Both the position numbers and the translations under genes were made by a program. The notes beneath the pieces are model-generated. The model was not told the origin of the DNA. It did no database searches and saw only the letters and a program-made list of their open reading frames with translations. Shown in pieces: positions 5,046 through 18,260 of a DNA stretch of 20,000 nucleotides. The first letter of the stretch is position 1; every line of letters begins with the position of its first letter. Origin of the DNA: Vermamoeba vermiformis (Eukaryota); NCBI GenBank assembly GCA_045837725.1, contig JBEWZL010000030.1, positions 481,307 to 501,306 on the forward strand, given 5' to 3'.

Positions 5046-6595
5046 CTACAATGCAGTCGCAATAAGAGCAGTAAAAATAGCTGTCAATGAACGGATTGTG
5101 CGTGACGATCCAGAGACATTGTTGCCAGACTTTGCGACAGGCACAGCAACTGATTTTGGAACGCTAGTTGGCTCTGTGATTGACCCCTGTGGTGCATCAG
5201 AAGGTGTGTTCGTTAATGGACAAGTGACCGTGGCATTGCAAGAGGCCAGCTTTACGCCAAATCTGGAAAAGTCGAATGAAACCTCCAAGCCTTGTCTGCT
5301 GAATGACGCTTGAGAGACGACCGGTTGAATTCCGCAGCCAGGGTTGTGGATCGTGTAGAGCTCTTCCATTACAAAACTTCGCAAATCAGCGCACGACGTG
5401 AGTTGTTGATTGACGCACGTGACGTCAATGGGATCGCCGTAGCAGAAAGGCACTGGAGTAAAGCCGCACATGGCCTCAGATGTGCCAGGACCGGAAAAAA
5501 TGCAATTCCAAACGAGAATCTCTTGATCGGTTTTGACCAAGTCAGCACCCCATATTCGGTCTCTGACTTCTTGTTGAATTAGCGCTGCAATTTTCCATTG
5601 TTTATCAGCACCTCGTTCAAGTGAAACAACACTTCCAACTCCGCGCAAGTCTGGGGCATTAGCGGAGTTGTCGAAGATAGCGGCCAGCAACACTTTTGTC
5701 TCGGAGACCATCACCATATTAATGCCGAGTGCTCCACTAGGTTGGATAAAACCTTTGCCGGAAGTCTCTAGTGTAACGTTCCAAGTGTTCTCGTTCTTGA
5801 CGTAGACTCGGATCATGGTGTCATAACCTTCGACTTGCGCGTAAAACGAATAGCCCATAACAATTGAATCGTTGATCCATAAAAGTCTGATTGGTTGTAA
5901 CAGATCGCCATCGTTCAGTATTTGAACTCTTTCACGCTCCGTCCAAGTGTAGTTATCGTTGCGCTGCATCAATACGATGACGTTGACGCTAAGATAAGCC
6001 AAATAAGGGCCCGTTACGTGCATTGGAATGCCAAGGGGAATAACATTTGTAGCGGTAATTGTTGTCTCGTCAACAACGTCCCAGGTGTCACCGTTGTTGA
6101 CACGTGTCACAAGGGAAGTGGTGTTCATGGCAACAAAAGTGTTGTCGGGTAAGAATTGAATCCTATAATAGACTTCAGGATACTTTATCATTGTTCCAAT
6201 GCCGGATGTAGCCTCGTTGAACGTGAAGAGTTGAAGTTCGGAATTTGTGGCACACGCAAACCAAACTCCATTAGTAGCGACAATGGCACAAGCTTGTGAA
6301 GTGAACCAACGAGTGTAGAATAGTCCAGAAGATTCGCTTCGTTTCAAGATCCGGAGTTGAACTGAAGTCGACAAGATCGTGTAATTGCCAGCCGAAGAGG
6401 CTGGTAGATAACCAGCTTGGGGAAAATTTATGGCTTGAGTTGGACCTCCAGGAATTTTAAATATCTTAAATCAAATATTTGATTAATTTTGAATTCGCAA
6501 CGACGAGCATTTCTTACCGGCAGATCTGCTGCACAGGCACTAAGAAGGCAACCCAATAACAAGAAAAGAATTGGCTTCGCAATACATCTGTTCAT
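5046..6595 (-). CDS. Secreted or cell-surface protein, 498 aa: signal peptide, beta-rich (propeller-like) body, Cys-containing C-terminal domain, S/T/P stalk and GPI-type hydrophobic tail. Exons: 6595-6518, 6464-5046
   Basis: Exon 1 encodes MNRCIAKPILFLLLGCLLSACAADLP (signal peptide). A 53-nt GT-AG intron (6517-6465) joins it in frame to the 442-aa ORF. The C-terminus SGSSRTIRSLTAIFTALIATAL* has no cytosolic tail. Confidence 0.85.
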
Positions 6596-7750
6596 CTCTG
6601 CTGCTGTTGTGGTCTTCGTATAACTTCTGATATAAATAATTCTTTAAATAGTCATAAAGTTGTAAAGTGAAAGATATCGTTGACTTTGCGGCACTTATTC
6701 TCGTTTTGAATATATTTTTAGATGGCCTAGGCATCGTTAGTGATATCCACTGTCTGTCGGTTTACTGATCCGACCTTGCGAAGTATTCAAAACATCAATG
6801 GTGTAGACTTTGACTGTGCCTTGTCGGCGATCTGAAATAGTAAATGTGTTAATCAAAATTACTTGTTAGAGAGGCAATCCTAACGTACTAAGTCGATTCT
6901 TGCTCCGATCCGTTCGACGACCACTAGAGTAAATGTAAGGCGTTTTTTGCCGTTTTTTTGCTCAAACGTTTTTCAAATAGCTGGCGACGAAAACGGCAAA
7001 AACGGGAACAGGCGATTTTGGCGACTTGCAACGGATGTGGTGACACATCACGAGAGAAGATAGAGATGGCGCTTCAAAGGTAAGATGGACTATTATAGTA
7101 CTATTCGTTTTAATATTAAACTCAAAAGTTTTAAAAAAAGTCGGATTTTCAATCCTGACACGGGATCGAGATCTGGGCTTGATGAATTTTTTTAATTATT
7201 TTAGTAATAAATATCGAAATCGCTATCATAGATTGTATTAAATTTATTAACGAAATGTTAAAAATCGATAAAAATTTTGAATGCTTGTACATCCGCGATC
7301 TTACTTAGACACTTCATTTTGATTATTAAATTGCTTTGGAACGAAGATTCGTTAATATTTAACACAAAATTAATTACTGTGGACAGAATCTTTTGGCTTG
7401 GATTCGTTGCCCGATCTGAACAACTTGCGATCTCGCTTCGGTAAGTAACTATAGAAATGAATTTGATTTTCAACGTCACAAATAATAAGATTATATAAAA
7501 TTCCCGTACTATAGTAGTAGTTTTTTACCCTGCTACGCAGCGTAAGCTGAGATCCCGTTTTAAAAAAAGTTTGCCGGCAATCTTTAGCTTAGATTTACAA
7601 ATTGAAACGTTCCATTTAGAAATAACAGATATTATCGAAGTTTATTAATGATTACAGCAAAAGCAAGCAAAGTTAATGAATTCAATCCGGGATCATTAGC
7701 ACTTTGGCTACTCAGTAAAACTCTCGTACTAAAACAGCCTTATCATACAG

Positions 7751-8608
7751 ATGAATATTAGATGCAGTGGTGTTTGTTCATACCTTCGTTTGAGACGAGT
7801 CGGTCGACTGTTCAAGCATAAATTTTGTGCGGGCTCAATTCTCAATGTGCAGCAAAATGAGTACAACGAACAACAACATGTAAGTAACTCTGCATTACAT
7901 TGGATATTTATACGTGTATAATATTATTAACCAGGCTTACCAGGTCAAGAACTGCTAATTTCAAGCTTCAATCTCGATGGGACGACGTCGGTCAGTTGAA
8001 ACGCAGCTGGATTGCACTTAACACGCCAATGGTATGATATTTACTATGTATGCATTAAATTATAAGCAATGAGTCAAATTCATTCATTCGAATTACTTTT
8101 TGGTCGTTTGATCTTGCGATCGAGAAATTAAAATTTCAGTTAGTTAATTTTTACTAATTTTGCCAATAGTGCCAATAATATACTCAATGTAAACATCGGT
8201 TAGGATAATTTCCTCTAGCACAATGGTAAAGTTTTTTATTTGCAAATCTGCCGTTACTAATCCGTTGTTTTCAGTCCGTCCGAGTTAGCTAGCTAATGCC
8301 TTCGCTGACCCATTCCCTTGCTAGAGCAGAGTCCAACAACACATCCGACCTTAAGGCCCTTCGCTCGATCCGCTTTTGGCGTTGAAGCATCGCGTAAGTG
8401 TCTGTTTTGTATTTACCCTATAACAACCACTTTATTAATAATTCCTTTTAGATCATCAAGTCACAGCGACATCCAGCCAAGATCGGCGAAGTAGTGGATC
8501 TTCGGGTTAGGACTTTGTGCGTGCAGTTACACCTTCAACTTAGCCGCACACAAAGTCCTAACCCGAAGGTCCACTACTTTGCCGAAGTCATTTTGTAAAA
8601 CGAATAAA
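7751..8608 (+). ncRNA. Spliced, ORF-poor transcript inside the CACTA-ended element (candidate pri-miRNA or lncRNA)
   Basis: GT-AG introns of typical size at 7880-7934, 8032-8169, 8226-8274 and 8394-8451; branch-like CTAAT motifs are visible in the middle two. The best spliced ORFs are only about 40-50 aa. AATAAA at 8603-8608. Confidence 0.5.
8483..8585 (+). ncRNA. 37-bp near-perfect hairpin, pre-miRNA/hpRNA-like
   Basis: 8483-8519 TCGGCGAAGTAGTGGATCTTCGGGTTAGGACTTTGTG pairs with 8549-8585 CACAAAGTCCTAACCCGAAGGTCCACTACTTTGCCGA. Both non-Watson-Crick positions are G-U pairs on the + strand. The 29-nt loop region is partly pairable. Confidence 0.7.
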
Positions 8609-8920
8609 ACTGTACTTACCGAAAACGGCGTTTTTTCTCTTTCGCGTTTTCTCCTGTTCAAAAATCGCTGCTGAGTGAAACTGTTTGTGGTCAAAAACGG
8701 TGTTTTTACCCCCTTTTACCTTTCCTCTAGTGGTACAGCGGAGTAGATCTCGTGACAATACGACCGACTTAGGAGAAAACTACTCTACAAATTATGCAAG
8801 ACTACTTCTACTCCATTAATTTACTTAGCCCTGAAATCCATAAATGTTGATTAACTAAACACTGGTATATTATTTTTTGCTGTTTTACATCCGAACCGAA
8901 GAAATAGTGCAAAATTATCT

Positions 8921-9100
8921 GTTTTGCAAGTCACCGTCGCATTACACGCTGCCATCTGCACGCCAAATCTGCTGAATTCCTGCGACACTTGCAGTCCCGA
9001 GAAGTCTGCAGTCGTTTTTAACAGTAAAGAGCTCTTCATCAATCTTAAAGCTACTAACGCTCGTGCACGAAGCAAGCTGCTGATCGAGGAACGTGACGCT
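8921..9100 (-). pseudogene. Truncated, frameshifted paralog fragment of the surface-protein gene at 5046-6595
   Basis: SVTFLDQQLASCTSVSSFKIDEELFTVKN aligns with DVTCVNQQLTSCADLRSFVMEELYTIHN. After a deletion and frameshift, GLQVSQEFSRFGVQMAACNATVTC aligns with GLEVSFDFSRFGVKLASCNATVTC. Confidence 0.8.
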
Positions 9101-9214
9101 AGTAACCTAACGTGCCTGGAGAACGTGGACTGCCCTCAAGAGAGGCAGAGTTAACCCTCAATCCATTGCATTAACGAGCTAATGAGAGTATTTATAATTA
9201 TTTACAATGATGTA

Positions 9215-12200
9215 TTATTTCGCTACTCGGAGACCAAAATTTTGTTTCTTTGCGGGTGGTTTGTGGATCTCGATATTTGCACTCGGATCCATTTGATCTA
9301 ACGACCGTTTTCGAGAATTAACAGCCAAGTTCTGTGGCGGGACGGCTTGGGGCTGTGGCACGGGTACTGCTATTGGCGTGGCTTGAACACCCAATGACGT
9401 TCTCAATGGGATGTTTTGTTGCGGCACGTTGATTGGTGCTTGTGTGGGCACTTGAATGGCAGGCTGCACGGCCATGTAACTGCGCGAGGCATTCGTGACA
9501 TTAGCTGGGACACCTGTCACTGGCTGCACGACGCGTGTCGTTTGATTGGGAACTGATGGCGCGTACGCAACTGTCGGCATGTGTGGCTTGGCAACGGCAA
9601 CAGGGACAGGTTGTTGCTGGTGCATTTGATTGATGACAGGTCTGCTGTTGTTATTGATTTGTTGTTGGGGCTGAGCTTGGACTTGTTGTTGTTGCTGCGG
9701 CTGAGACTGCTGTTGCACGTGTTGTGCTTGATTTGATTGGCTTTGAGGTGGTTGTTTTTGTGGCGTGGCTGTAGCCTCAGTCGTAGGTCTGAACAAAGAC
9801 TCGGCGTAAGTCAACGCACGTTTCTCGATTCGTTTGCAATTGAACTGTTTGAGTATATGATTCTCTTCGTAGTCTTCAAGAATCGTCCATGCATCAACAT
9901 TGTTCGGTAGTGTCGAAGAGGTGCTTGTTGGCTTCGCAACCACAGCTCCGGTGCTCGGAGCAGCCGTAGTGCCAGGGGCTGAAGTTGGCACTGTGGTCGG
10001 GGCAGCAGTGGACGCTGCCTCTGTTTGTCCTGTCAACAAGAACGGCATGATCTGTTCCATTCGTTGTTGCAAGGTCGGTGGCAACTTGGCCGTCCTCAAC
10101 AACTCTTGCAGTTTCTTCTTCAAAGGCGAGTTCAAGTTGTCCATTCTCAAGCCTCTCAAAGCTCTTCGGTTCGATGAGGCCATGTTCGCTGCAGATCCGC
10201 TGTCTTTCTCGCCCAAGAGACAGAAGAGCGTGAACAAGATCAAGTACCACAATTCAATGCCGTCAACTGCATTGACCTGGAGTGCCGGCACGAGCAGTAG
10301 GTTCGTTAATGTCGTAGCCAGCTCTTCTTGGTAGTTGTATGGGATCTGAACACCCTTCACGATCATCGCACCAACAAATCTCAATCGTAACACAATCTGT
10401 AGCCGCTGTCGCTTCAGTTTGATCGTGTCTTCTTCAGGCGACTACAAGACATTGTTATTAAGAGCCATATATAAACATCAAACAATGAGACTTACGCTTA
10501 ATCTCTCGCCAATCTGCTTCAATTGGACTTGCACAGATTTGATGAATGACACGCGAAGTTCATTAGGCACTTCAGTCAAGGACGACAACACAACTTGCAA
10601 GATCTCCGTGAATAAGTTATAGCTGTCCGTGGCTTGTGAGTACTGCGGGTCAATGGACTTGTCAACCTCGTACCTAAAATGAAATCACGAGTTAATAGGA
10701 GTATCGCTATAGGGCGCAAAAGTAACGCAAACTTACGAGAACAGACGGATCGTTTCGGTCAAAGTACTTGTGCCGTTCAACAGGTCCGTGCTTTCAAACA
10801 ACTTTTGCGTGTAGTTGACAATCTCTTTGTGCACTTCAATGCCTAGTATAGCGACAAGACGTTGCAGGATACTTCCGAAGCTGACATCGTAAGCGAGCCC
10901 GTTGGTCAGTTGATTAAAGATGAGCTTCACGAGCACGGGCTCAGAGTTGAAAGTGTCGCCGTCCCAATTGATCACTTGTCGCTTATTTGATTTCAAGAGC
11001 CACCATAACTCGTCCATGAGCAATCTAATCTCGAGCCAAGCGCGGTTAAGTGACCACGTGTTCGTGTTGCTGAGAACTCTTTGCATCATTTTGACGACCT
11101 CCGACAAGTCAATCTTTTCCATCACGTGCAGCTTCAAGAACGAAGTCTCGTTTGGTGATAAGATGTGGAAAACAATGCGACAGCCAGTGGGATCACGAAG
11201 GGTCTTCAACTTCTCGTATAAGTTCGTTGTGTCTTCCAAGCAGATCTGCGCAACGAAGGTGTTGTCCAAGGCAAAATTTTCCATTTCTTTCTTGACAGCA
11301 TCAATCACGGTCTCTTTTTCAGCTGAGGTAAGCACGCTCAATGCAGTGTTGTGCACGGGGTGAGTGCTCGAGTACTCCTCGTTGAAGATCACTTCGCTCT
11401 TGTACACGTACAACAACAATCCAAAGGCCAGTTCTAACGATAAGGACGACGCGGACAGTCTCAAAGAACTCAATTCCTAGACGAAGGAGTCATTAAATAT
11501 ACTACAATATAACGGGCAAAAGTGACTTACGTGTGCCGAAAACACGCCCAACTGTGCAAAGGCAGGTTCGTCTAACAGCAACAGTTTGACAATATTGACT
11601 TGGACAGGTGTCAATTGTGTCGCCCTGGGTGACTGTTCGATTTCTTGAAGGACTGGCAACGCAATGTTCGTGTAGAATTGTTCGAGACCAACGAAATTGA
11701 TGAGCACGAGACCGAACCAAAAGCTGACCATGGCGCGGTAAGTCTCGCTCCATTGCTCAGTTTTCAAGAACGAAATCGATTGGTCCTTCAAGCACGTGTA
11801 AGCATTGGTGTCACTATCACCGAAGAGTCCTTGTGCTCGTAACTCCAATACCAATCTTTGATAGATTGACAACTGTTTTTGTGCCAGTGATTTGCTGCAA
11901 TTAAATTAGTAAGGGTTTTCATATTATAGTAGGACATATATTATAAGTTACCTTGTGAGGGCAGGCCAATCTTTCGTGTACTGAGTAAAAGCTGCAACGA
12001 CCACTTTGTAGCTGTTGTCAGATCCAGCCAAAGATGACTTAAATTCGGCTAAGACTTCATCAAAGACCTTATTCATTGTTGCACTATCCTCGTTGCCTTC
12101 AACTAATAGTGACAACTTCGCAACCTGATCCACAACTGAGCTGTCGGGTTGGATCTGGATCTGCGAGTCCGAAGCATTTTGCTTCGATACCTAGAGTAAC

Positions 12201-15200
12201 GTTATTCAGTTAATATGGCATCTCTATTATAATGGTAGTGACTGACCTCTGCTAGCTTCCTCTTAAGTTTGTCGTTCAATTTGGCCTTGCTGATCCATTG
12301 TTTAACGCCCACAAGTGTGCCGTACCGCTTGATAAACGAGCACAAATAATTCGTAACTTTTTCTTCTAAACCAGCACCCAAGTTTTCATCATACTGTAAC
12401 GTACAGTTAGTACTATAGTAATGCATTTATATAGACGTACCTTATTATGCAACTGTTGCAATAGTTCGTTGGTTCCATCGGTCCAAAAGAACAGAAATTC
12501 GTATTTTTGTACAAAATATAATACATTCGCATTTCCGTTGTTGAAGTAGCTCTGCAACAATCGCATAATGATGTGACTTATTGACCCTAAGTCATTTGAT
12601 ATCTCCAAAATATAAAACACTTGCAGGATATAATAATCGCTGCCTTTCCAGTACCTCCTGTACAAAAGAAAAAAAAATTAAAAAAAATTGCAAAAAAATT
12701 CAAAAATTATCTTATTACCATTTATGCTTCTCGAATTGCTCCTTAAAGTGCTCTATAATTCTTTCTCCGAAGTAGCATTGATAATAAAACGGTTGAGTCT
12801 TCAAAAAGTCGACTAACGCATCCATGCTCGAACCGTTTGCTTGTAATGGATTATCGCTCGTAAGACTCGTCAAATAGTCTTTGAGCATTTGTTTTCCGCT
12901 ATGTACAATTTCTTGGTCATTCTTAATACAAATATTAGCTTGCGATCCGGATGCATCCGCTACACGCCGGAAAAATATCTCTTGAATTCTAAATATTATT
13001 ACCTTAATACCAAGTGAACTTAATGACGTCCTTCGTTGATTTCTTTCATGCTTGCATTCTCCGAAAATGGGGAATTGCAGTAAAAAGTTTCGGTGCTAAA
13101 TGAATCGCGTTAGTTAGCATTCAACTCTTAAATTGAGCTTTAAATAAGGTGTAAAGGATACTTACTAGATGATTATCACTTCTATCAATTAATCCTCGCG
13201 AGATCAGGCTCCGGACGTAGTTATCATGAGAGAAAACGTTGGCGCGAATTAACTCGCCAAACAATAATACAACTTGTGTCTCGGCTGTAAATAAAATCAA
13301 TTAGTAGCCAAATTAATAGGACAGTCATGATAATAAAACATACAGTGACCGTTAAAAGTTCCGGCATCCAAGAACGACGAAAGATGATCTTGCAGCGATA
13401 CATTTGAGCCCTAAAATATGGTTAATATACTATCGCAGTCCGTATCGTAAAGCATCACAAATCAAATCAAAATAATACTTCGAAATTTCAATAATTAAAA
13501 AGTGATTTGTAACGACTTGCCTCTTGAGCACACAGATCAGCTTTCAATCGTCGAATCAATGAGACGGTTATATATACACGGTACATCTCATTCTTCGACT
13601 GGCAGGTCGTTCCCCACTCGCACAACAAATGCACGTTTTCCTCGCGCTTCTCCTGCGATCCAGATGTGAGTTCCTCATACAATATCAACCCAGATGGTAC
13701 TTACTGGTAATGGTAGCTCGGAGAATAGGTGTTTATAAATATACTCGATGTCTTTTGTCCTTGACAAATTCTCCAAAGTCTGTGCAACGATTCGTAAATA
13801 CGGATCCGTTTCAAAAATTCTTAGAGAACAAAACTTACCTCTATTAAGTTCGACCTAGATGTCGTCGGTGGGTTGATAAACTGTTCGACAGTATTCAATC
13901 TTTGACGCAATTGCGCGAGGTTTTGGATGCAGATCTCATCCGTGTCTGATAATTGAAACAACTACAAAAAAATTAGAATTAGTACTACGCGGTAATAAAA
14001 ATTCATTTGTACTTACCGAAGATCCATTGTTCGATTTTACAATAGCTTTGCTGCTATCACTTTCATTGTTAGAACGTTCCAATGCGCGTTCTATAACAGA
14101 CAAAATGTCGGTGCCAGCAGGAATGAGCAGATCCGGCTCAAAAATCAAAGCTGCTCTGAGGATGGTGACTAGATTGCTATGGAACTTCACTTCGATCGCG
14201 TAGTTCGTTGGATCCGGAACAAAAGTGCCCGAAACATAGTTGCTCTGGTACAACTGGATCCGACTGTTAGTATTCATACTGCACTATGATAATGATATTA
14301 TACGTACTTGGAATAGTCTAGTGTGACAAAAATCTAATAATCTGCTTGCAACTGCTTGTTTGGGCAAAATGTCGTCGAGGTACTGCAACAGAACGGACAA
14401 AATTAAGCACTGGTTATCGACCTTATTCGATTTTTGCAGCTCTTCTAATAGCGCATTAAACAGCGCGTCCTTGTCGATTAGTCCTTCTTTGTAAGTCCAA
14501 TGCAAAAGTCGGATCACGTAGCTCATTTTTTGCTTTCGCTTCTCGGAAGTTAATGCTGCATTATTTGCACCCATACTGTCTGGACCAGTCTTCTTGAGTC
14601 CTGTTTTGACGTAGAACTCGCGCACTTGCTTGATAATATTATTGACCAAAATTGTCGTCCAGTTAGTGGATGCAGTGTCTTTTTGCGTTGACTTTGGTGT
14701 GCCTTGCGATATTGAATAGTAGTTGTTCAAATATGAGATCTTAATGTACCACGTCGCTCGCACGAGTGGAATTCGTTGTTCCGCCAGCACCATAATTAGC
14801 GATTCTCCTTTAGGTCTATTAAACAAACAATCAGTACGAGAAAGAATTGCAAAAATAAATATATATAATTATGACGCGTATTAATATTATTATGTTAACT
14901 AATCGATTCACATTTGCTCGTGCGTGTTACGACCACAAGAATTTTTTTTCAATTAAATATGGATAATTCAGCAATAGTGTAATAGGCTATAAAAGCATTA
15001 TAATCCTATTATAATCATATTACGCACCCTTGCGGCACTTTGAGAGCCAAAACGCTCAATCGTTCATCAGGCTTGGCTAATTTATCAAAGAAGGTCTTCT
15101 TTGTGCTATCAGTAGACGCAACTTGCTCCGGAAAAAATAATTTTCGTTTCATGAGCGGTGCGCCAGCCGGTTTGGCCGCATCTTTGTTGTTCGCGCTTGC

Positions 15201-17025: not shown

Positions 17026-18260
17026 ATGGAAACCTCAGACGTATCTACTGCAGTTGCATTGGTATTCTTTACCCAAGAACGGTTTATAATAGTTCTAACG
17101 TTAATTTTGTAGGCCTTTGCCATCAGTAAAGAAACTAGCTTGACTATAGCGAGTTCAGCCATCTCTAAGCTGGCACAATTTTCAATAGAACTTTACGTTT
17201 CGTTGCTGGATCACCGAGGCTCTCCACTTTGGCCTCGAATATTCAGTATGTTAAGTTTATTCATATTACTGTGTATTTTATAATGAATTCTTCCTTTAGT
17301 GACGTTCAAGTACTTTTTCAGTTCGCTAAAAAATCGGCGACGGATCAGCTCGAAGGAACTAGCAACTAAAATGGCCTTTGTGAAGCCTTTCATCCACGAG
17401 CTGAATTTACGCGACATAATGGACAGAGAAGGGTTTATTAGAACGGCACTACTGTTAGGTGCACCCTACGATCCACAACAACTTTGCGGCAAAATTATTC
17501 TCGCGAATACCAAATTGTCAAAAAAGCGAAAAGAGAAGTTAGTCGATTGGCTTCTCGCCAACAACTTTCTAAATAAGGACATGCAGCCGTTGAGCGTCTC
17601 TGACTATGGCTCATACATAAAGAAAGGCTATTACGAACACGTGCAAATCTTTATGTCTCGATTCCCTAATTGGATCAATAGTACGTGCGTTGTAATGAAT
17701 TAATGATGGCCTTAGCGACTAATCAATGCGGTAATTTATTTTTCAGCATCCGACGACTACGGCACAGTATTGAGTAAATGTGTTCCTAAAATGAAAATGT
17801 TACTCAGATACATGAGCGATATTAAGAAACAGTTCGGAGCTAGAAAATTAATTGACTTGTTGGTTCACAGGTACGTTAAGGAGAAAATTTGAGCCCAATT
17901 ACCCGTTTTAATTATTATTTATTCATTTCTAGGATTAATAACTATTCTGCATTCTTGTTCATTGGTGATAGATTCAACTTTACTTGCTTCAGTCTTCACG
18001 CTCAGTTTATTGGATCTGGGATCAGGTGGCCAACGGGTAACAAAACGTTCAAGCCTAAAGGTAGCTTTATAATTAATATATGCTTAGAAATGGTCATTGC
18101 AATGATGGAGATTTATGCAAGCGACGACCTGGTCGAAAAGTATCTTCATTCGGGTCAGAAATCAATAGACATGTTGCTTTACCACATGTTTCCTCAGCAT
18201 CGAGAAATACTTTGTCCGAAAGTAGACGCTAAACGGCATGCATTAAGAAGGATATCTTAA
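17026..18260 (+). CDS. Uncharacterised spliced gene (~333 aa), weakly ankyrin-repeat-like, with its 3' end supplied by the adjacent transposon. Exons: 17026-17061, 17113-17245, 17300-17680, 17747-17870, 17933-18260
   Basis: Four phase-consistent GT-AG introns. The segment YIKKGYYEHVQIFMSRFPNWINTSDDYGTVL resembles an ankyrin repeat. The final codons RRIS* lie inside the transposon TIR. Confidence 0.65.

Follow-up and report, generated by a model that had tools for sequence, protein, structure and literature searches.

A CACTA-ended, transposase-less DNA element with a built-in hairpin in the amoeba Vermamoeba vermiformis

The window analysed here is a stretch of 20,000 nucleotides from contig C30 of Vermamoeba vermiformis (G000:C30:481307-501306; the assembly comprises 43 Mb in 309 contigs, and its introns are short, AT-rich and of the GT-AG type). 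At positions 6922..8732 it holds an element of 1811 bp that begins with CACTA, ends with TAGTG, has ends in common with copies on contigs C114, C3 and C124, and is absent from the syntenic contig C306. Its left terminal inverted repeat (TIR; 6922..6938, + strand) is 17 bp long and agrees with the right TIR (8716..8732, − strand) at 15 of 17 positions. The left end that is shared with the transposase-coding copy on C114 (6922..7447, +) includes a run of AAAACGG/CCGTTTT repeats (6939..7010, +), kept in that copy, which are likely candidates for transposase-binding sites. It is followed by a non-coding interior that is single copy in the assembly (7448..8480, +; short AT-rich intron candidates at 7880-7934, 8226-8274 and 8394-8451), a hairpin (8483..8585, +) and a right end (8597..8732, −) that is 83-91% alike in all copies and contains a splice donor at 8619, subterminal repeats and the right TIR. 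We assign a probability of about 0.8 to the reading that this is a transposase-less DNA transposon, whose ends match those of a transposase-coding CACTA-type element in the same genome and which is inserted, with 2 bp duplicated, in one of the region's two matching copies.

A preliminary description of this DNA had proposed a CACTA-ended non-autonomous mobile unit bounded by 6920 and 8734, and such a unit is borne out by the existence of other copies, an autonomous-type partner and an empty allele. The terminal inverted identity of 17/19 counted from 6920/8734 was recovered (15/17 from the true ends), as was the degenerate inverted similarity further inside, a level reached by 1 of 2000 shuffles. 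The boundaries were wrong, the family ends being 6922 and 8732, where other copies stop matching. A genome-wide search with both ends, which the description had called for, found one other place for the left end and three for the right, all of them stopping at CAC (6922) or GTG (8732), and the TIR pattern occurs at six sites in the genome as against one for a reversed control. The same pattern had no matches in JGI metagenomes and none in viral contigs; a 20-nt right-end pattern gave six metagenome matches, none with further similarity, and these six were dropped as chance. The AAAACGG/CCGTTTT motif near both ends, also reported before, is enriched, with six occurrences (6950, 6990, 6999, 7555, 8622 and 8694) in 1.81 kb where about 0.3 would be expected from the background of 0.17 per kb in 300 kb of genome. 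That the element encodes no transposase also held up, the longest ATG-initiated open reading frame (ORF) among 1260 splice models being 83 amino acids.

The autonomous-type partner is a 10,409-bp copy on C114 (C114:29428-39836) that has both ends and is flanked by TA on either side. It is 88% identical to the window over 6922-7331, 80% over 7398-7447 and 91% over 8597-8732. A nested piggyBac-like element accounts for 3889 bp of its length, and the remaining ~6.5 kb carries two divergently oriented genes, a spliced one for a probable DDE transposase and another whose homologues occur only in other family copies. Because the shared left end lies 3' of the transposase stop codon in C114, RNA of the + strand there would run antisense toward the transposase gene. 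On C3 there is a right end whose copy runs off the contig and is 70% alike to C114 over 1.75 kb. C124 retains only ~210 bp, up to a break within the hairpin loop, and C221 (C221:14383-15876) holds a 97.5% copy of the C3 gene in which everything between the hairpin base and the final 10 nt of the TIR is missing. Among the 33 substitutions that separate C221 from C3, 14 are transitions at CpG, which hints at CpG methylation of these elements; an array of palindromic repeats of another element lies upstream of this decaying copy. Other insertion sites were seen in other samples (4 of 17 listed sequencing runs were aligned to the window): two contigs of run X4, both diverging directly after 8732, and one of run X7 leave the window at the right end, and one X7 contig diverges at the left end.

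The insertion itself can be read against C306, which is syntenic with the window over ~27 kb at 92-97%, matches both flanks of the element, and is likely a matching element-free copy of the region, either an allele or a long duplication being possible. The empty site on C306 is CGACG-AC-AGCG, and the window has CGACG-AC-[element]-GT-AC-AGCG. A paralogue on C163 (~80% alike) likewise lacks the element, with a spacing nearly that of C306, and the spacing in both indicates that AC has been duplicated (6920..6921 and 8735..8736) and that GT (8733..8734) is extra. The two extra bases are the reverse complement of the adjacent AC, and it is because this palindromic addition hides the right-hand AC that no duplication is visible at first sight; the earlier statement that the element has no target site duplication (TSD) therefore does not stand. 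The search for an empty site that the description had suggested did find one on C306, although not in the predicted form CGAC/GTAC, and no empty-site joint was seen in other samples among the 4 of 17 runs aligned, in which cover at the flanks is patchy. Exact 2-bp duplications (TA, AG, CT, TT and TC) flank five of the eight related elements with both ends visible (chance 4.5e-5), a count that leaves out C257, C77, C299, C3 and C110, which end at a contig break or whose ends were not found, and the truncated C124 and C221. We regard the GT as a likely P-nucleotide scar of flank-hairpin chemistry, on the strength of one verified case. The junction of the C194 element, TG/A-TG, is also compatible with a P-nucleotide; empty alleles of C194 and C114 were looked for in the genome and not found.

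To place the family, we turned to its transposase. One exon of the C114 gene gave 14 matches on nine contigs, with relatives at eight other places in the genome, and four of these transposase regions lie between TIRs starting with CAC or CCC and spaced 6.4-7.3 kb apart. A further 28 relatives were recovered at an E value of at most 0.001, and there was no match to the transposase among 318 longer candidates. In the Atlas, the nearest clusters with a family for a C72 exon are Transposase_21 (15% of members), RAG1_RNase_H (12-95%) and Plavaka (45%), with scores of 0.93-0.96. The putative catalytic D, D and E can be aligned by motif in the expected order, with the first D and the E invariant and the second D present in all five rows that reach its position. 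The CMCT lineages are described as all sharing C(2)C and H(3-4)H motifs together with 5'-CA..TG-3' ends and a TSD of 2-5 bp (PMC12730594). Our family resembles them in its ends (seven of eight elements start with CAC, and C22 with CCC), in its 2-bp duplications and in the clusters nearest its putative DDE transposase, but differs in that the CxxC after the second D is found in none of seven transposases of this genome (the five aligned ones plus C77 and C110), and in that only the first H of H(3-4)H is invariant (CxLH in 5/5, with a second H, two residues apart, in 2/5). A library relative, P0018, retains CRFC at the C(2)C position.

Plant CACTA/EnSpm elements have CACTA...TAGTG ends, a 3-bp TSD and a full-length form with transposase and ORF2 (PMC4158355). 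The window element has the same termini with short TIRs, and a partner with a transposase and a second ORF, but its duplication is the 2-bp AC, its partner's genes point apart, the transposase is without C(2)C, and Transposase_21 does not score above the cut-off. Since C(2)C and H(3-4)H are not present as described, we do not file the family under EnSpm or another named CMCT lineage, though it appears CMCT-like in operation. Judged by these sequence features, the element is a non-autonomous member of a divergent CMCT-type (CACTA/Plavaka/RAG1-like) family, and the open literature that we searched, which did not cover Repbase, yielded no paper on this family, as judged by title or abstract. At least six further families with the same type of transposase and CAC/CCC ends are present in the genome (C194/C257, C282, C11, C72, C216, C22, C77/C299 and C110), among them a 2676-bp internal-deletion copy (C282) and a 228-bp miniature inverted-repeat transposable element (C216). 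An array of ~22-nt palindromic repeats lies at C72:2329-2676, 1.5 kb outside the C72 element.

The interior of the window element was compared with several possible sources. A DNA search of the assembly, of a kind that misses old and diverged donors, found no host donor, and the one exon frame tested as protein had no match. Descent from a degraded transposase or gene 2 was rejected (no tblastx match, and all 10 local scores in the range of shuffled sequences), as was a protein-coding role, given the short frames noted above and the tested frame without a match. A piece of the interior (8274-8416) is found, 91% alike, joined to the right end with another flank in run X7.

The inward-facing donors that had been noticed near each end are present at 7080 (+) and 8619 (−). 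Donors of the form GTAAG[T/A] on the + strand number four in 1.8 kb against ~1.6 expected (0.88 per kb), which is not beyond chance, so the case for splicing rests on contigs from run X7. This run is from another isolate, is presumed by guess to be RNA, and consists of unstranded assembled contigs. The first X7 contig aligns over 6920-7080 and continues with 30 letters that are identical, compared by eye, to the start of exon 2 in C114; its variants are those of C114, and upstream it has 1083 nt of unrelated sequence, from which we take it to be a C114-like copy at another site, spliced at 7080. It would thus mark intron 1 of a + strand RNA (7080..7386), whose donor is kept in C114, followed by a short exon 2 (7387..7440) that is 65% identical to C114, compared with 50-53% in the adjoining stretches, and then by a donor at 7441 that C114 also keeps. 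That this exon is antisense to a coding exon was considered and found wrong, as the transposase frame stops ~40 nt before it. The second contig aligns over 8274-8416 with 13 differences, jumps to 8619 with CT..AC at the joint, and ends in the right terminus with another flank; in the window the corresponding minus-strand GT-AG intron (8418..8619, 202 nt) would remove the hairpin. The skipped part of the copy behind this contig is not visible, and that copy may be without a hairpin. At its other loose end the contig looks, by eye, like the exon that stops at 8225, with 19 of 28 letters agreeing in register. This suggests that the + strand junction 8226/8275 is also used. The third contig has no differences from the window and starts exactly at the exon start 7935. 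The convergent transcription proposed earlier thus finds support in the use of both inward donors, to the extent that unstranded contigs from a strain other than this one can give it. Raw RNA reads from a diverged strain (runs X14 and X16; 22 and 38 reads) fall nearly all on the conserved right-hand gene of the window; the left host gene has one at most and the element has none, and the reads are uninformative for the element.

The hairpin has a 37-bp stem (arms 8483-8519 and 8549-8585) and a 29-nt loop, with 35 Watson-Crick and two G-U pairs when read on the + strand. Its folding z is about -12 to -14, with none of 200 shuffles as good. It is homologous to an 18-bp hairpin in C3 and C114: the pattern of the stem core occurs at exactly these three sites (none for a control), the hairpins start 224, 240 and 245 nt from the right end in the window, C3 and C114, and the scores of the window arm against C3 and C114 are reached by only 13 and 22 of 5000 shuffles. 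Of the 18 pairs of C3, 15 are the same in the window, two are changed on both sides and one is lost from both arms. In C3 and C114 a short final intron and the probable stop codon of gene 2 lie immediately ahead of the hairpin, and in the window it follows the intron candidate 8394-8451. The preliminary description had taken the hairpin for captured cargo. With a homologue at the same place in gene-coding copies, and no host source for the interior in the searches described above, that view finds no support, and the hairpin is more plausibly an inherent part of the family, a native hairpin that was likely lengthened to 37 bp, than a captured host gene. It appears specific to its own family, as no stem longer than 13 bp was found in the six further families scanned. 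Two 21-mers taken from the arms have no site outside copies of the element at up to two mismatches, and Rfam gave no family at the gathering score (the best of four weak matches had 36 bits, with 75 needed). MicroRNA (miRNA) genes are characterized by a defined hairpin, a precisely cut 5p/3p duplex and no other small RNAs (PMC11014262); the window has the defined hairpin and lacks a match to a known miRNA family. Genes for RNA interference (RNAi) are encoded by the host, with Piwi domains on three contigs, RNase III domains on four (in tandem pairs, Dicer-like, on two) and RNA-dependent RNA polymerase on four.

These observations can be arranged into a proposed course of events. Two genes of an element of ~6.5 kb would likely have been replaced by a 1-kb non-coding interior, and the resulting element was likely moved in trans by the transposase of its family. 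That transposase would likely have cut at the right end, a hairpin would have formed on the flanking DNA, and its off-centre opening and rejoining would have left the extra GT. RNA entering from either end would then be spliced at the built-in donors, as seen only in another isolate, the + RNA retaining the hairpin in its last exon and the − RNA splicing it out; the two RNAs would overlap over 8275-8393, and in full-length copies the + RNA would run toward the transposase gene in antisense. Both this overlap and the hairpin are proposed to feed a host RNAi pathway and to damp the family, so that spliced inward RNAs from both ends may help to silence it. Carried to its full extent, this would be a previously undescribed protist CMCT lineage without C(2)C and with a built-in brake, in which transcription entering the element is turned by the end donors into convergent non-coding RNAs, and a native hairpin, lengthened in non-autonomous copies to the size of a miRNA precursor, makes these copies mobile small-RNA silencers of their own family, an idea that we hold to be improbable as a whole.

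Several results weigh against the account given so far. The recognition value of the C72 query in the Atlas is 2025, under the mark of 2300. Pfam matches to 23 single exons (not to the spliced full-length protein) stay below the cut-off, the best being E 0.022 for Plavaka and 0.1 for Transposase_21; six frames from the C114 transposase region, scanned among 16 proteins, had no match in Pfam, only one of 21 relatives of the transposase matched (E 1.6e-4), and a comparison of the transposase with PDB found nothing. With only 88-91% likeness and the nested element interrupting it, the C114 copy does not establish an active mobiliser. Of the eight elements, three are without an exact 2-bp duplication; in C72, comparison with its allele shows that 1 bp is duplicated. 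On the side of the RNAs, the X7 data are RNA by guess and unstranded, with one or two contigs per junction, all from this single run and from diverged copies, and X7 contig 14, which holds junctions of both strands, is possibly an assembly chimera. Silencing in trans by the hairpin itself is weakened by the lack of an outside target for the arm 21-mers, and by the two substitutions and one gap per arm (18-nt core) that distinguish the window hairpin from those of C3 and C114.

Other explanations of the hairpin and the RNAs have to be set beside this one. A serious contender, if short of an even chance, is that the hairpin acts at the level of DNA or is a by-product, an inverted repeat whose symmetry is maintained by template switching and which stalls gap repair and determines where deletions break, with the spliced RNAs as read-through from neighbouring host promoters. 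Two of five copies do break at the hairpin (C124 in the loop, C221 at its base), the hairpin folds well as DNA (-45.5 kcal/mol), symmetric changes in both arms are the expected outcome of template switching and fit the changes seen, and the unrelated sequence upstream of the left end in the X7 contig is what read-through would give. Such an explanation is harder to reconcile with the better conservation of exon 2 and both left donors than of the adjoining intron, with the minus-strand intron that would remove the hairpin in this copy, and, weakly (chance about 1 in 8), with the finding that, within the stems and at their edges, the three positions that depart from Watson-Crick pairing (two in the window, one in C114 versus C3) are all G-U when read on the + strand. 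The same features could point, though with considerably less probability, to a miRNA-like precursor in the family's own spliced non-coding gene, spread by non-autonomous copies as a regulator of family or host genes. The final exon of a non-coding RNA with several exons would hold the near-perfect stem, another isolate keeps and splices the interior at a different site, the host has the RNAi genes, and miRNAs occur in unicellular amoebae (PMC11014262); yet neither Rfam nor the search for targets of the arm 21-mers lends support, and the family form of the stem, at 18 bp, is too short for a 21-nt duplex.

Pack-CACTA elements are CACTA elements with an interior captured from a host gene, and it seems unlikely that the window holds one of this kind, with a host small-RNA gene as cargo. 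Its 1-kb interior, with short introns like those of the host and without similarity to the autonomous copies, may be foreign to the family, but it could not be traced to a host gene by DNA or by the single exon frame tested as protein, in searches that miss old and diverged donors, and the hairpin has its homologue at the same position in gene-coding copies. As for the boundaries, we think it very unlikely that the insert is 6920-8734, integrated bluntly without a duplication, with AC and GT belonging to longer TIRs. Removal of 6920-8734 likewise restores the C306 sequence exactly, and one X7 contig aligns from 6920 at another site; against this, AC is missing at the left end of C114, GT is missing at the right ends of C114, C3 and C124, and five of eight related elements have exact 2-bp duplications.

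The surroundings of the element include a host gene on the − strand (5046..6595), outside the element and with its likely start ~325 bp from the insertion. A Pfam scan of the window proteins gave no match for it, and its 53-nt first intron is removed exactly in run X7. To the right of the element, a fragment at 8851-9135 (−) is paralogous to the C-terminal part of this gene (45 nt at 80%); 8752-9127 is absent from C306, and related copies of the fragment occur on C163. A host gene at 9215-10441 (−) is possibly Mediator-subunit-like, and 14284-14868 (−) belongs to a host gene resembling the Mediator subunit Med12 (E 4.5e-5, below the cut-off). At the end of contig C30, 18731-19911 holds an exon of a DDE_Tnp_4 (Harbinger/IS5-like) transposase (E 1.8e-10); synteny with C306 stops at 18246, and this stretch may be a second allele-specific insertion.

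The piggyBac-like element nested in C114 (C114:32027-35915) is ~3.9 kb long, with a DDE_Tnp_1_7 match (E 8e-5) and ATAT at both junctions. Its transposase was rejected as the mobiliser of the window element, as it belongs to a nested element with its own ends and family. Members of that family also occur on C11, C23, C44, C58, C91, C163, C172, C210, C220, C236, C24, C69 and C206; ten copies have identical scores, and the five examined agree at 99.9% across 3.95 kb while their flanks differ, which makes it likely that this element is active. It carries a ubiquitin-specific protease gene (UCH, E 1e-12 and 1e-15), and a deubiquitinase on a DNA transposon looks worth separate study.

Non-autonomous CACTA-type elements as such are ordinary. 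CMC-NA_1/2 and ENS1_Cis are non-autonomous elements with CAC..GTG ends and a 2-bp TSD (PMC6004678), and the window element resembles those of the dSpm type (PMC6004678, PMC4158355) in its CACTA...TAGTG ends, short TIRs, subterminal repeats, 2-bp duplication and partner with a transposase and a second ORF. What goes beyond the ordinary type is the group of transposases without C(2)C, the scar at the junction, and the combination of convergent splicing with a built-in hairpin, the hairpin and the inward donors at both ends being features of this element relative to the dSpm type. Mu killer of maize (10.1101/2020.01.09.900282) is similarly a derivative of an autonomous transposon that yields hairpin RNA and RNA complementary to its parent, as the window element would. 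Mu killer has a long hairpin with the same sequence as a stretch of the transposase mRNA, and it is proven to silence, whereas the stem here is 37 bp and native to the family, its arm matches only the family hairpin, which lies 3' of gene 2, and not the transposase, and silencing is only proposed. The P-nucleotide footprints of Ac/Ds (PMC5873905) resemble our junction in that a few palindromic bases are added, centred on the base adjoining the transposon end; they are described at hAT excision sites, whereas the addition here, verified in one case, flanks an element that remains inserted.

The partner transposases would form a group, of at least seven families in this genome and 28 further relatives, without a motif that has been reported as common to all CMCT lineages. 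The empty allele reveals a palindromic addition of two bases beside an element still in place, which fits a hairpin on the flank (hAT/RAG-like chemistry) and explains the apparently missing duplication. If small RNAs arise from the hairpin or from the overlap, the locus would offer, within one genome, a presence/absence test case for the passage from a transposon hairpin to a miRNA-like gene, and also one for the self-limitation of DNA transposons in a protist.

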